This document shows, piece after piece, positions 13,011-32,000 of a DNA stretch of 32,000 bases; the stretch's first letter is position 1; each line of letters begins with the position of its first letter. The DNA lies in contig JAWCFL010000002.1 in NCBI GenBank assembly GCA_038858525.1, positions 89,987 to 121,986 of the forward strand, written 5' to 3'. The notes beneath the pieces were generated by a model, which saw only the letters and a program-made list of their open reading frames with translations, searched no databases and had not been told where the DNA came from. This DNA is from Candidatus Jordarchaeales archaeon. GTDB taxonomy: Archaea; Asgardarchaeota; Jordiarchaeia; Jordiarchaeales; Freyrarchaeaceae. Made by a program: the position numbers and the translations under genes.

Positions 13011-13173
13011 GCGGGGGTTGCCTAGTGGCTAGTTCCGGAGGAACCCATAAAAGGCGCTGGCCTGGAGTTTAAACCGCACCTGAAAGCCAGTGACCCGAAA
13101 AGGTGCATGACGCCGCGCGCCATCATGCGCTATCGGACGGGTCGCGTGGGTTCAAATCCCACCCCCCGCGCCA
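13011..13173 (+). tRNA. tRNA-Ser(GGA) with three introns: D-loop 13031-13050, canonical 37/38 13068-13084, variable arm 13101-13138
   Basis: Acceptor stem GCGGGGG/CCCCCGC, G73 and encoded CCA. Removing the three segments gives D-arm GCCU-AGUGGCUA-AGGC, anticodon arm CUGGC-CUGGAGA-GCCAG, variable arm GACCC-GAAA-GGGUC and T-arm GUGGG-UUCAAAU-CCCAC. Confidence 0.88.
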
Positions 13174-13281
13174 AACACAACGATTCCCCCCAAACGTTGT
13201 TTTATGTCCTTCCTCCAGGAAATTTAGAGGAAAGAGCCGAGTAAGGCTATGTTTTGTGTGAAAAAATAGCTTGCTTGTTTT

Positions 13282-26718: not shown

Positions 26719-26838
26719 TGGAGCCCCGGGCGGGTGTTCCGCTGAAGACTCGAACCCGCGGCCTGCGGCTTACGAGGCCGCCGCTCTACCGGTTACCCGC
26801 CACTCCAGAAGAAAGAGGAAGCCCTGAGCTACCGGGGC
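26719..26838 (-). tRNA. tRNA-Thr(CGU) with two introns: D-arm 15/16 26823-26793, T-loop 59/60 26748-26736
   Basis: Reverse complement gives acceptor GCCCCGG/CCGGGGC, U73 and CCA, and anticodon arm GCGGC-CUCGUAA-GCCGC. Removing the introns gives D-arm GCUC-AGCCGGUA-GAGC and T-arm GCGGG-UUCGAGA-CCCGC. Confidence 0.9.
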
Positions 26839-27119: not shown

Positions 27120-28481
27120 ATGGTTTTGGAGGCGTTAGGTGAGGGGTTAAGGAACGCTATTAGTAAGCTTCTCCGCTCAACTGTTGCTGATAGGGAGACT
27201 GTTAGGGAGCTTGTAAGGGAGATTCAGCGCGTTTTGCTCTCTTCCGACGTTAATGTCGAGCTTGTGCTTCGTCTTTCAGAGAACATTGAGAGGAGGGCGT
27301 TTGAGGAGGAACTCCCCCCGGGCGTCAGTAGAAGGGAGCACATTGTCAAGATCGTTTACGAGGAGCTCGCGGAAATCCTTGGCAGCAAGCCGCGCGGCCT
27401 AAACATTAAGCCGGGACAATTAAACGTCATAATGCTCGTCGGGATACAAGGTTCAGGAAAAACGACTACCGCAGCCAAGCTGGCTAGATACCTAGCTAAG
27501 CGCGGATTTAAGACGGGGCTTGTGTGCGCCGACACTTTCCGTCTAGGAGCATATGAGCAGCTCAGCCAGCTAGCTGACGCTGCAGGAATCCCGTTCTACG
27601 GCGACATTAAAAGCAAGAGTAGCGTCGATGTGGCTAAGAAGGGGATCGAGTATTTCCGGGGAAAGGGGTACGATGTGGTCATAGTTGACACTGCGGGCAG
27701 ACATAAAAACGAGGCTGACCTAATGGAGGAAATGAAGGATATTGCCAGAGCGATCAAGCCCACCGAGATAATGCTCGTCGTTGACGGGACATTAGGGCAG
27801 CAAGCCATGGCTCAGGCCAGAGCCTTCAAGGAAGCCACAGATGTAGGTTCGATAATCGTGACTAAGCTTGACGGGACTGCTAGGGGTGGAGGAGCTCTCT
27901 CAGCTGTAGCCGCAACAAGCGCGCCTATAAAGTTCATAGGAGTGGGGGAAAAGCTAGACGACATAGAGGCATTCGACCCCGTCGGCTTCGTAGGCCGCCT
28001 CCTAGGAATGGGGGATTTACGGGCGCTTCTCGAGAAGGTGAGGGAAGCCGAGATCAAGCCTGAGAGGGAGGAAGCGTTAAGCCTGCTCACAGGGCGCTTC
28101 ACGCTAAAGGATTTTTACAAGTGGATGGAGCAGGCTAGAAAAATGGGGCCAGTAGGTAAGCTCTTCGAGCTGATGGGGCTATCCAGTGTTCCGAAGGAAC
28201 TTAGAGACGTCGCCGAGGCCAAGCTTGACAAGTGGAAGGTCATAATGCAGTCCATGACTATGGAGGAGCTGGAAGACCCCAAGATACTCAACAGGTCAAG
28301 AGTCAACAGAATAGCCAGAGGGTCCGGCACCACACCAAAGGAAGTAAAAGAGCTGGTAGACCAGTACTTCGCAGCCAAGAAAATGGTTAAAGCGCTAGGT
28401 AAAAGGAGGATGCGAGGAAAGGGGATGCCCATACGCGGCGTAACACCTGAACAACTGGAGAAGCTAGTGAGGAAGCTATGA
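27120..28481 (+). CDS. srp54: Signal recognition particle protein SRP54
   Basis: GIQGSGKTT, DTAGR, TKLDG-x-ARGGG, M-domain SRVNRIARGSG. Confidence 0.98.
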   Translation: MVLEALGEGLRNAISKLLRSTVADRETVRELVREIQRVLLSSDVNVELVLRLSENIERRAFEEELPPGVSRREHIVKIVYEELAEILGSKPRGLNIKPGQLNVIMLVGIQGSGKTTTAAKLARYLAKRGFKTGLVCADTFRLGAYEQLSQLADAAGIPFYGDIKSKSSVDVAKKGIEYFRGKGYDVVIVDTAGRHKNEADLMEEMKDIARAIKPTEIMLVVDGTLGQQAMAQARAFKEATDVGSIIVTKLDGTARGGGALSAVAATSAPIKFIGVGEKLDDIEAFDPVGFVGRLLGMGDLRALLEKVREAEIKPEREEALSLLTGRFTLKDFYKWMEQARKMGPVGKLFELMGLSSVPKELRDVAEAKLDKWKVIMQSMTMEELEDPKILNRSRVNRIARGSGTTPKEVKELVDQYFAAKKMVKALGKRRMRGKGMPIRGVTPEQLEKLVRKL

Positions 28482-29044
28482 GACACTTCTACATCATACT
28501 GAACAGCATCCCTAAGTTCTCAAGGAAAAACGTCGACTGCGGAGATGTAAGCGACGACGTGGCTGAGCTCTGCTCCTGTATCAGAGCAGCCCTCTTCCTC
28601 TCCCACGACATAAGAAGAGACGTTAAAGTCCACCTAGTCCTCCTTGAAGAAAAAAGAGAAGTTGTAATCGATGGTGGAAGCATCAGGTATCTTTCCCCCG
28701 ACGAAAGATCCATCTGTATGCTCCTGATCAAACTGAGCGAGAAGAGAGCCAGAAAACCCTGGAGAGGAGTTTACGTTAACGATCTCACATCTATCAGGGA
28801 CGTTTTCTCACCGGACGCCTTAATCATCACGCCCAGTAAAAGCGGAGCCGACCTGCGGCAAGTGAAAAACTTAAAGGAGGTAGCAGTAATTATTCCATTG
28901 ACTCCCTCAGACAATTGGATAGAACACCTAAATAATGCAAGAACACTGCACGTCAGAACATGGGGAAAGCTGCTTCCAAGCCACCTCATAACCATCCTGA
29001 ACAACCAAATGGACTTAGCGGAGGAACAAAAATGTACCCCCTAA
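28478..29044 (+). CDS. trmY: TrmY-like SPOUT protein (tRNA pseudouridine-54 N1-methyltransferase homolog), degenerate
   Basis: C-x-C-x3-ALFLSHDIRRDV, LSPDERS, H-x-ITIL-x-N-x2-D; lies directly upstream of pus10. Confidence 0.72.
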   Translation: MRHFYIILNSIPKFSRKNVDCGDVSDDVAELCSCIRAALFLSHDIRRDVKVHLVLLEEKREVVIDGGSIRYLSPDERSICMLLIKLSEKRARKPWRGVYVNDLTSIRDVFSPDALIITPSKSGADLRQVKNLKEVAVIIPLTPSDNWIEHLNNARTLHVRTWGKLLPSHLITILNNQMDLAEEQKCTP

Positions 29045-30387
29045 AGAAAGCACTCGAAATCCTCGAGAAGACACCGCTATGTAACAGCTGCCTAGGCAGA
29101 CAGTTCGCCCTCCTAGGAATGGGGTCAAACAACCCGAGCAGAGGACACGCCCTAAAACTAGTCCTCACAATGACAGCAGCATACACACTTAGAGAAAACC
29201 CTGATGAAGCAATAAGGATACTCAAAATCCTCGCCACTAACGGCATGTTTCAACCAGCAACTGAAACCCTACAAAAAGAAGGAATTGAACTCAAAGAGGA
29301 AACAAAGACATGCTACATATGCAGCGGACTCATGACGAAGAAAAAAGAGATAGCCGAGAAAATCGTGTCCGCCCTTAAAAACTACGACTACAGAAGCTTC
29401 CTCATAGGATGCCACGTCCCTCCAAGCCTAACAGAAAAAGACGACGAACTCAAAGCGTCACACCAAATAGACACAGGAGAATCAGTAAAAGCAGAGTTCA
29501 ACAGAGAAGTGGGAAAACTCGTCTCAGCCATAACGGGAAAAACCGTCGACTTCAAAAACCCCGACGTAGTCGCAGTAATAAACCTCGAAAACCTAGAAGT
29601 CACAGTCAACTCAAACCCAATATACATAGCAGGACGCTACCTCAAACACGTAAGAGGAATACCACAAACAAGATGGCCCTGCAGAGCCTGCAAAGGAGAA
29701 GGATGCCCCCGCTGCAACGGCACCGGCAAAATGTACACCGAATCAATCGAAGAACTCGTACTCACACCAATACTCGAAGAAACAGGAGGAGACGAAGGAA
29801 AATTCCACGGAGCAGGAAGAGAAGACATAGACGCAAGAATGCTCGGAACAGGCAGACCATTCATAGTAGAAATAAAAAACCCAAAAAAACGCAACATAGA
29901 CCTACAACAACTACAAGAAAAAATAAACACCCACGCCCAAGGAAAAGTAGAAGTCCACTCCCTACACTTCGCAGTAAAAGAAAACGTAAGACAACTCAAA
30001 GCCCTATCACAATTCGCACCAAAAACGTACAGAGTAAAAGTCCAACTAGACAGAGAAGTAACCCCACAAGAACTCGAACAACTAGAAAAACAACTCACAG
30101 GACAAACAATAAGACAAAAAACCCCAAGAAGAGTAGCCCACAGAAGAGCAATAAAAACAAGACTCAAAAAAGTATACCAAGTCCAAGCCAAACGGTTAGA
30201 CGCGCGGACGATAGAGCTAATAGTAACATGTCAGGGCGGGCTCTACGTTAAAGAGTTAGTTACAGGGGACAAAGGGAGAACACGGCCGAGCGTATCAGAG
30301 ATACTACAAACAAAAGCATCATGCGAAACATTAGACGTGATCGATGTGGGTGCGCCATTGCCGCAAGAAATAGAGCAGCGACAATAA
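29032..30387 (+). CDS. pus10: tRNA pseudouridine(54/55) synthase Pus10
   Basis: LCNSCLGRQFA, GRYLK-x-VRGIPQT-x-W, catalytic GREDIDARM, GGLYVKEL. ATG at 29032 follows GGAGG. Confidence 0.96.
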   Translation: MYPLKKALEILEKTPLCNSCLGRQFALLGMGSNNPSRGHALKLVLTMTAAYTLRENPDEAIRILKILATNGMFQPATETLQKEGIELKEETKTCYICSGLMTKKKEIAEKIVSALKNYDYRSFLIGCHVPPSLTEKDDELKASHQIDTGESVKAEFNREVGKLVSAITGKTVDFKNPDVVAVINLENLEVTVNSNPIYIAGRYLKHVRGIPQTRWPCRACKGEGCPRCNGTGKMYTESIEELVLTPILEETGGDEGKFHGAGREDIDARMLGTGRPFIVEIKNPKKRNIDLQQLQEKINTHAQGKVEVHSLHFAVKENVRQLKALSQFAPKTYRVKVQLDREVTPQELEQLEKQLTGQTIRQKTPRRVAHRRAIKTRLKKVYQVQAKRLDARTIELIVTCQGGLYVKELVTGDKGRTRPSVSEILQTKASCETLDVIDVGAPLPQEIEQRQ

Positions 30388-30683
30388 TTCGCACGGAGGA
30401 ACACGACACCCCTCACGTGACCCGCACAGCAGCCAAACTCTCACCCATTTTCCAGAGCTTTAAAGACCTCAACAGACATTCCCCTGGCCTAGCTTTCCGG
30501 TTTTTCTCGGCAAGAAGAGGGACGTATGCTCGCCGAGCAGCCAGCACCGCAAAGGAGACCACCAGACACCTTAAATACCACACAACCATACAACGCCCCA
30601 CCCTAAACCCACCAGCACTCTACGTGAAACCGCCAACAACGCGCGAACTAGCCCCCTCCCTTTTCGCCGGGCCTCCCCTACGT

Positions 30684-32000
30684 CTAGTCCGCCCCCTCAA
30701 GCATTTTCGTCATGTACTCTACGTCCTCCCTCGGCAGCTTAGAGGACGCCGCCTCCAGAAGCACAAGCTTCGCCTCTCTGCCAGCCAGCTCATCAATCAT
30801 TGCGGGGAGGTACAACCTGAGCTTCTCGGGCGGCAGCACCTTCACCGCCACCCCAGCAACCTCAAGCTTCGCCCCATCTTCCTCCAGCTCGCCCATCACG
30901 TCAAGGATTTTGCGCGCCAGCTCCTTCAGCGGCAACCCCTCCGCAACCTTCTCCGCGACCACCCTCGCAACCTCTATCTTCGCCTCCTTGTCGGGCATTA
31001 GTCGTATCAGGTCGTCCGCTTTGGCTGCCAGCTCGTCCTTAGACAACTCCTTCATAATGGTCTTCGCTAATTCCATCTTCGCCTCCTTGTCGGGCATTAG
31101 TCGTATCAGGTCGTCCGCTTTGGCTGCCAGCTCGTCCTTAGACAACTCCTTCATAATGGTCTTCGCTAATTCCATCTTCGCCTCCTTGTCGGGCATTAGT
31201 CGTATCAGGTCGTCCGCTTTGGCTGCCAGCTCGTCCTTAGGCAGTTTGAGTGACACCTTCAATACGAGCTCCAGTCTCTTCTCCTCCGGAATTGGGAGCG
31301 TCATGTTGATGATTTCGTTTGCGAGCACTTCTGGCGGCAGCTTTTGCGCTAGCTCCATTGCCAGCTTCACGGCCTCCTCTATCCTCTCCTTCCGCATCAT
31401 CAGCGTCTCTATTGCTAGGCGTGCCATCGCTGGGTTCCGCATGCAGCTTTCGAGGTAGTATTCATATGGAAGCACGGGCCATCCCCTCTCCTCAATGTAG
31501 CGGGCACCCATCCCTAAATCCTTATCTATTTCGCAGAGTGCTATAAGGGCATCGCTGGCCCTTTTCCTCTGCCCCCACGTCCTCGGCATCCCCGCCATGA
31601 CTGAAATTATTGTTGCGAGGGTGGACGCCAGGTCCCCCCTAGGCGCCCTCCAACAGTCCACTATCATGATGGCTGCCTTCATGTCCTTCATCTCCGCCCA
31701 CACCACGTAGTACCCGTTCTTCGGCTTGCCCCTGAGAGTTAAGGTTACGTCTCCGCTGGTGATGGTGGCGCCGGGCTCCCGCCCGAAAAACTTCCTGAGG
31801 TCCTCGCTGAATGCGCCCGCGTTCAGCATGACTGGGATGACAGCGCAGCGCCCCAATCTCCTTCTGAGCCCCTCCACCCTCTCAACCATCTTCCCAACTT
31901 CGCCTGGGTCGAGCCTGTCGCTGAAGGTCTTGACCTCCAGCGCGAAGGCGAGCAGGCCGCCCTCCTCGAGCACCACCATCTCCCCCCTCGGGAGGAAGCC
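30684..32000 (-). CDS. Hypothetical protein: PD-(D/E)XK-like domain followed by about seven 33-aa helical repeats; 5' end beyond the window
   Basis: The frame stays open to the window edge (GFLPRGE precedes the ORF-track Met). It contains GE-x14-EVKT followed by tandem KDELAAKADDLIRLMPDKEAKMELAKTIMKELS units. Confidence 0.65.
   Translation of the reverse strand, partial: GFLPRGEMVVLEEGGLLAFALEVKTFSDRLDPGEVGKMVERVEGLRRRLGRCAVIPVMLNAGAFSEDLRKFFGREPGATITSGDVTLTLRGKPKNGYYVVWAEMKDMKAAIMIVDCWRAPRGDLASTLATIISVMAGMPRTWGQRKRASDALIALCEIDKDLGMGARYIEERGWPVLPYEYYLESCMRNPAMARLAIETLMMRKERIEEAVKLAMELAQKLPPEVLANEIINMTLPIPEEKRLELVLKVSLKLPKDELAAKADDLIRLMPDKEAKMELAKTIMKELSKDELAAKADDLIRLMPDKEAKMELAKTIMKELSKDELAAKADDLIRLMPDKEAKIEVARVVAEKVAEGLPLKELARKILDVMGELEEDGAKLEVAGVAVKVLPPEKLRLYLPAMIDELAGREAKLVLLEAASSKLPREDVEYMTKMLEGAD
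30976..31240. repeat. Perfect 99-bp tandem repeat, about 2.7 copies, in frame within the CDS
   Basis: Units start at 30976, 31075 and 31174 (ATCTTCGCCTCCTTGTCGGGC...) and are identical as far as 31240. Confidence 0.97.

Follow-up and report, generated by a model that had tools for sequence, protein, structure and literature searches.

The window, by which we mean the whole 32,000-nt stretch of DNA analysed here, comes from a 2.09 Mb Jordarchaeales genome (G000) and carries near its right-hand end the gene pus10 for the tRNA pseudouridine 54/55 synthase (29032 to 30387, + strand; 451 amino acids). The protein is identified as archaeal Pus10 by a full-length match to TIGR01213 (533 bits against a cut-off of 200), by matches to PF22023 and PF21238 and by gene calls in other assemblies; the called start is at 29032 and the open frame extends back to 28960. 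On the contig pus10 follows srp54 (27120 to 28481, + strand), whose G/T-rich 5' end adjoins a tRNA gene, and then a trmY-like gene (28478 to 29044, + strand; PF04013, and NF002560 with an E value of 1e-19, below the cut-off). An intron-bearing tRNA gene at 26723 to 26838 on the - strand, found by motif scan and sequence, has the anticodon CGT as read by eye and is a weaker focus of the kind described below. It is one of three intron-bearing tRNA-like genes in the window (the others at 13050-13180 and from 24935) that were missed by ARAGORN and Rfam; ARAGORN detected only 11 tRNA genes in the genome, and the Rfam search of the window gave no match at gathering scores. Behind pus10 lies the left part (30388 to 32000) of a cassette of about 4.2 kb, which runs past the window to the BRE/TATA box of a tRNA gene with the anticodon CAU.

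The third positions of the 204 pus10 codons from 29581 to 30192 are A 132 times, C 68 times, G four times and T never, the G-ending codons being TGG at 29674, ATG at 29731 and 29839 and ACG at 30025, which reproduces exactly the counts of the preliminary description. The full run is longer, 219 codons from 29536 to 30192 (+ strand) with one synonymous G/T ending, and it is the longest such run in the genome; the same stretch is at 0.96-0.97 in the sister lineage. Conditioned on the amino acids and the genome's codon usage (mean chance of A/C 0.504), the probability of at most one synonymous G/T ending in 201 codons is about 1e-59 (log10 P = -59), so this is indeed far beyond ordinary codon bias, and the sharp reversion that had been placed at 30193 is equally real: the 58 codons after 30192 are 60% A/C (Fisher P = 4e-16 against the tract). 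On its left side the tract has no block edge; silent-site A/C on the + strand (G/T on the - strand) climbs as a ramp from about 28200 to 30192, across the end of srp54, the trmY-like gene and pus10, with third-position values of 0.65, 0.73, 0.71, 0.81, 0.96 and 0.99 per 300 nt. The pus10 tract is the saturated summit of a gradient of about 2 kb, sharp on its right side only. The bias also explains, as had been proposed, two spurious overlapping open reading frames, one at 29409-30251 on the + strand, whose first codon positions are the third positions of pus10 and so nearly lack T, and one antisense at 29637-30191 on the - strand with the same cause; both are stop-free because the absence of third-position T removes all stop codons, or two of the three, in those frames.

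A genome-wide sawtooth in strand composition

Third positions, expressed on the + strand, were scanned over the whole genome with gene calls from our own ORF scorer in place of a standard gene finder, and relatives were sampled over 180-260 kb each. The scan confirms that the pus10 tract follows a DNA strand and also that it is not unique. There are dozens of A/C or G/T tracts, several of which cross genes of both orientations (for example C42:11099-13178), and they follow one DNA strand irrespective of gene direction, non-coding DNA included. In the strongest of them A/C climbs towards a focus and G/T declines away from it over 1-4 kb. The commonest strong foci are tRNA genes, where the A/C fraction is 0.64 in the 500 nt upstream and 0.38 downstream; the step from A/C to G/T reaches 0.25 at gaps with tRNA genes, against 0.08 at other gaps of more than 150 nt and -0.02 in mid-gene, and is slightly negative in operons too. 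At lone tRNA genes the two sides are nearly equal (+0.078 upstream, -0.103 downstream). Among gaps of 40-200 nt the step is 0.11-0.13 between convergent genes, 0.04 between tandem genes and 0.03-0.04 between divergent genes, and gene ends beside gaps are A/C-rich even at convergent genes, where no promoter is expected. Further strong foci are CRISPR flanks, the region upstream of 16S and the gap between EF-1alpha and eIF2-gamma; at CRISPR arrays it is apparently the leader side that is strong.

The ratios C/(C+T) and A/(A+G) shift together, by a logit of about 0.7-1.8 (a measure of composition and not of mutation rates), with no dinucleotide or neighbour-base preference, and in the most extreme windows T is also gained on the G/T strand. 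The same sawtooth is present in the relatives G003, G004 and G006 and weak in G002, and G011 does not have its asymmetry.

That selection on codons or on the mRNA, through translation or structure, gave pus10 its A/C endings seems to us a very poor prospect. Gene ends are on average richer in A/C, which would suit it, but the bias runs with the DNA strand through oppositely oriented genes and non-coding DNA, as in the C42 tract, the pus10 orthologues range in A/C fraction from 0.6 to 1.0, and EF-1alpha and the thermosome are biased in the opposite direction to pus10. Simple transcription-associated mutagenesis is rejected as well: it is the coding strand of pus10 that carries A/C, the tracts cross genes of both orientations, and the ribosomal protein genes at C5:5205-8300 stay near 0.5. 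Deamination of the AID/APOBEC type is rejected on the A/G shift, which is as large as that of C/T, and on the missing motif. A replichore skew would share the polarity seen at the foci, but the residual skew of whole contigs is at most 0.06, autocorrelation vanishes by about 3 kb, and the region of cdc6, though of the same polarity, is modest and weaker than the tRNA foci. Upstream of the main cdc6 gene lie three ORB-like repeats (TTTCCAGTGGAAG; C11:46258-46840), and this is likely the canonical origin.

A probable replacement of the 3' end of pus10

The preliminary description had left the choice between a strand-specific process and a junction made by recombination or by assembly. The sharpness of the edge alone speaks for a chimera at 30192, an idea to which we attach practically no weight and which is rejected, as 16 other assemblies from NCBI, Logan, ENA and JGI carry the same edge: ten contigs match the pus10 DNA exactly and another six depart from it at one to three sites. 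Of the earlier alternatives the other two both stand, side by side, the tract being put down to a strand-specific process and the edge to recombination. The further notion of a join to DNA from an organism with A/C-ending codons is excluded; the A/C-rich part is native, at 6% from the sister, and the mixed tail is the likely newcomer.

Comparison with relatives locates the change. In the sister lineage (L092, run SRR25243437), whose Pus10 is 92% identical, the tRNA(CAU) gene stands 67 nt after the pus10 stop and third-position A/C is 0.96-1.00 from 29581 to that stop. Window and sister differ at 185 of 3073 sites before 30193 (6%) and at 47 of 174 after it (27%; P = 6e-17), and in transversions at 1.3% and 6.9% (P = 1e-5). 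The left junction falls in 30154 to 30193, the last stretch that is near-identical to the sister, with dense differences from 30194; by likelihood the break comes after 30186 (best range 30186-30194) with a likelihood ratio of 81 that was reached in none of 2000 permutations. The tail itself, 64 codons in frame at 30193 to 30387 on the + strand, is 27-29% different from every sampled relative, the other carrier of the cassette included, and has a branch length of 0.39 against 0.017 for the body of the gene; a tree of 53 tail codons gave it no supported placement. When G003 serves as the outgroup, 38 of the changes in the tail are assigned to the branch of this genome and seven to that of the sister. 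Between sister and G003 the difference is about the same in the tail (10%) as in the adjoining body (12%), and therefore the sister's tail is the inherited one.

An account in which the sequence changed in place would have the cassette inserted behind the stop codon, after which the last 195 nt evolved fast under a reversed, G/T-ward pressure, for instance from a new focus at 30192. We regard this as unlikely. It can draw on the 26 of 38 lineage-specific tail changes that are A>G or C>T, on the searches that yielded no donor allele and on the thermosome gene of several relatives, which has a switch inside the gene. Against it, transversions are also five times higher in the tail, 20 of the 47 differences lie at codon positions 1 and 2, relatives free of the skew depart from the sister in that direction as well (31 of 39 in G001), and the tail is still 60% A/C with A/C-rich DNA next to it, which is not what the right side of a true focus looks like. 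Import of the tail by replacement is the reading that we consider likely.

The DNA beyond the tail bears on where such an import could have come from. The first tRNA gene, with the anticodon CAU, is found 4229 nt past the pus10 stop in better assemblies of this species (L049:13586); judged by its acceptor stem, we take this displaced tRNA to be probably Ile2. The same assembly, L049, bridges contigs C2 and C12, the contig of the window breaking before the tRNA, and its raw skew runs at +0.3 to +0.5 ahead of the tRNA and at -0.74/-0.78 immediately behind it. The sequence again resembles that of the sister from the BRE/TATA box of the tRNA onwards, and the promoter past the TATA box is sister-like. 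The cassette is absent from the sister and from G001-G004, in all four of which a tRNA cluster lies directly behind pus10; it is present in this species and in a distant member of the same genus, a G002-like species (SRR32459161-3), 81-86% identical and at the same site between pus10 and the same tRNA. The pus10 of that species is 19-25% different from the one in the window, and therefore the cassette moves between species at this site; its pus10 end is ordinary and G002-like, and its tail is 29% different from the window tail, so that this species is not the tail donor and the donor lies outside the sample. A short-protein search for a donor with the tail region returned only a G001-like fragment (P0016), and a search of species genomes with an exact DNA motif gave no match. 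Close relatives have alternative content between conserved flanks here, as at a replacement genomic island. Directly 3' of the same tRNA the sister has a different, unskewed island with sugar epimerase genes (L092:3700-5693), and therefore both flanks of this tRNA have been swapped often.

Within the window the cassette holds a gene that runs in from beyond the window (30684 to 32000, - strand), in which a nuclease-like motif was seen by eye; family searches assigned its protein to no family, and an upstream cassette ORF has weak HTH matches. Inside the gene is a 99-nt tandem repeat of about 2.8 copies (30965 to 31243), the product being 257 or 290 amino acids in other assemblies. The cassette genes are variously fused or split between the window, L049, L050 and L093 (751; 290+457+345; 257+795 amino acids), and the number of 99-nt repeats varies. 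Paralogues of the cassette genes at C1:74287-75623 lie in the same orientation upstream of another tRNA gene (C1:75958), and a similar repeat-protein end was seen by eye beside a CRISPR-repeat flank (C42:14530-14672).

Integrating elements can supply a replacement 3' end to the gene that they enter, as e14 does for icd in Escherichia coli. A site-specific element of this sort in pus10, whose integrase and the old gene end were lost later, would account for an in-frame foreign 3' end that adjoins a mobile-looking cassette and for the paralogous cassette at the other tRNA gene. We think it improbable: the far end holds no relic of the old tail (score 24 against a shuffle mean of 25.7), the pus10 end occurs only once in the genome, the tail of the other carrier is an ordinary G002-like one, and a search for tyrosine recombinases (PF00589) found no match in G000 (92.7% complete), the family being present in all 14 control genomes. 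A duplicate or remnant of the pus10 end is rejected both for the genome and for the far junction, and a diversity-generating retroelement target is likewise rejected, as the genome has no second copy of the tail that might be a template repeat.

Replacement by recombination would instead have removed the DNA from about 30190 to the tRNA promoter and put DNA from a divergent donor in its place, the ends of the swap falling in a conserved part of pus10 on one side and in the conserved BRE/TATA box on the other. The incoming DNA would have brought a working but unskewed pus10 end together with the 4.2 kb cassette; the old tract would persist as a fossil, and a second gradient would now climb through the cassette to the tRNA. 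The joint claim, that the pus10 tract is the fossil of a tRNA-anchored gradient and was cut by a replacement from pus10 to the tRNA promoter, we hold to be probable, with somewhat more reserve than the import of the tail taken by itself. The junction is an ordinary kind of event, and the gradient is the surprising part.

At the contig end beyond the window, a long run of C (C2:123290-123349) has no counterpart in L049 and seems to be an assembly error in C-rich sequence. In this genome the ends of more than 20 contigs carry matches, at about 88-98% identity, to an IS607-like element (MerR-resolvase and TnpB; L141:6617-8390), which is the probable cause of most breaks in the assembly.

Proposed exposure of one strand at the foci

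The first layer of the account, the gradient, has as its foci tRNA genes, rRNA and CRISPR flanks and other boundaries of transcription units. The strand running 5'-to-3' away from a focus gains G/T and loses A/C whatever the direction of the genes, which is the pattern observed, and both transition pairs shift on the same strand and decay from a fixed start, as in a deamination gradient. We propose that the outward strand is left single-stranded, so that its C and A would be deaminated (C>T, A>G). When pus10 ended 67 nt upstream of tRNA(CAU), its - strand would have become saturated, leaving A/C only on the coding strand. Together with the later swap, this makes up the account in two layers that we favour as probable.

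What exposes the strand is a separate matter. R-loops of ribosome-free RNA, from tRNA read-through or from divergent or antisense transcription, might do so, and they might perhaps prime short strand-displacing DNA synthesis. Exposure by R-loops, with or without such synthesis, is our first choice, with our confidence about evenly divided for and against it. The effect is strongest at tRNA genes, rRNA, CRISPR and transcription-unit ends, and both the ranking of the foci and the sparing of translated operons fit; a difficulty is that the upstream side would need divergent RNA, since read-through alone predicts neither that side nor the leader side of CRISPR arrays. Other repair processes that act on one strand are possible causes, and to them goes the weight that R-loops and dispersed origins leave.

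Dispersed initiation of replication, in which helicases are loaded at non-transcribed gaps and tRNA loci, or are pushed to them, and fire bidirectionally with the lagging-strand template exposed near the starts, we consider doubtful, though it has several points in its favour. Bidirectional origins have this polarity, A/C followed by G/T on the + strand (PMC2817419), both sides of lone tRNA genes are affected, convergent gaps have the largest step among gaps of 40-200 nt, the cdc6 region with its ORB-like repeats shares the polarity, and replication without origins is reported for Thermococcus (PMC5663688). Against it, a decay over 2-4 kb would, with ordinary forks, seem to need hundreds of starts per round, the contig-wide skew is as small as given above, the cdc6 site is weaker than the tRNA foci, and a Freyarchaeum genome with the same sawtooth has been reported to have a bacteria-like skew with two replichores and bidirectional replication (PMC11291895). 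We speculate, with a shade less credence still, that in Jordarchaeales and Freyarchaeia DNA synthesis begins at many tRNA genes and at boundaries of transcription units, whether primed by R-loops or through a pushed helicase; the sawtooth would then be a mutational map of these starts and the pus10 tract a footprint stranded by recombination.

Two further sources of exposed strands, resection of breaks with 3' overhangs and stalling of forks at barriers, are rejected by reasoning, each predicting the opposite polarity. Heat is rejected as a requirement, as the pattern is present in G006, taken to be the soil Freyarchaeum genome of PMC11291895. Loss of repair genes is also rejected: UDG, NucS and RNase HII are present. 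Endonuclease V was not found in G000, at its 92.7% completeness, and is present in all 11 relatives searched, and G003, G004 and G006, which have it, also show the sawtooth. Searches for reverse gyrase gave nothing in G000, G003 and G006 (excess SD 0.089, 0.078 and 0.098); G002 and G004 have the enzyme (0.038 and 0.070), while G011 lacks both reverse gyrase and the sawtooth. G001 has the enzyme too, and in G001, G002 and G004 it lies in a region whose neighbours lack orthologues in G000. No gyrase was found in the order.

Relation to known systems

Replacement flexible genomic islands, for instance those of Alteromonas, are reportedly exchanged by homologous recombination between conserved flanks. 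The present locus is similar in that close relatives have differing gene sets at one tRNA-adjacent site with the junction in a core gene, and it differs in that the junction is visible only through the cut in a saturated gradient and in that the donor is unsampled. For the gradient, a parallel, cited also in PMC2817419, is vertebrate mitochondrial DNA, where deamination of single strands leaves C>T and A>G changes on one strand that are graded with distance from a start. The spectrum and the grading are alike, whereas the gradients here are chromosomal, short (1-4 kb) and two-sided, number in the dozens and lie at tRNA genes and gene gaps, and we know of no strand-displacement origin for these archaeal gradients. 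The replichore skew of bacteria and archaea shares the origin-like polarity of the switch but spans half-chromosomes and not kilobases, and at the present foci the cdc6 site is not the main switch.

Polak and Arndt described a bidirectional strand asymmetry at human CpG islands, with an excess of A>G on the 3' side and its mirror image on the 5' side, and the standard explanation of the combined C>T and A>G spectrum is a long single-stranded state of the strand (Polak and Arndt 2009, PMC2817419). The polarity is the same as here, as is the doubt between replication and transcription; the human flanks extend up to 1 Mb, whereas in this prokaryote silent sites saturate within 2 kb. In unicellular fungi GC skews are opposite at the two gene ends, C-biased at the 5' end and G-biased at the 3' end (McLean and Tirosh 2011, PMC3315797). 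There, too, the skew reverses along transcription units and extends to flanks and amino acid use, but the sign is opposite to the one seen here, where G shifts together with T and the tRNA loci are dominant.

Searches on keto or amino-keto skew in archaea returned replichore-scale work or nothing, most subscription journals lying outside their reach, and we found no published description of a kilobase keto-skew sawtooth in archaea in the literature searched. What is new at this locus is the before-and-after comparison: the edge is biological and not one of assembly, and the tract is probably a fossil. That silent sites on one strand become saturated within 2 kb of tRNA genes implies a local process of much greater strength than the usual replication skew. 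The locus amounts to a natural experiment in which the tRNA was displaced, the old footprint kept and a second footprint is present beside the tRNA, and therefore the effect is tied to position and not to gene function. If the starts were replication starts, Asgard starts would resemble eukaryotic origins in being positioned by transcription, which would bear on the origin of dispersed, transcription-guided origins in the closest relatives of eukaryotes. In such genomes, calls of codon usage, foreign genes and overlapping ORFs will mislead.

Cut gradients are also a means to spot and order recombination events. The thermosome gene at C42:13178 (L101) has a sharp switch at about codon 68, from mixed endings to 94-97% G/T, and its first 68 codons have fewer G/T endings in G003, G002 and G004 as well. 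A second swap is not supported for this edge, as there is no excess divergence from G003, and therefore not every edge is a swap; the thermosome switch may be a focus inside the gene.
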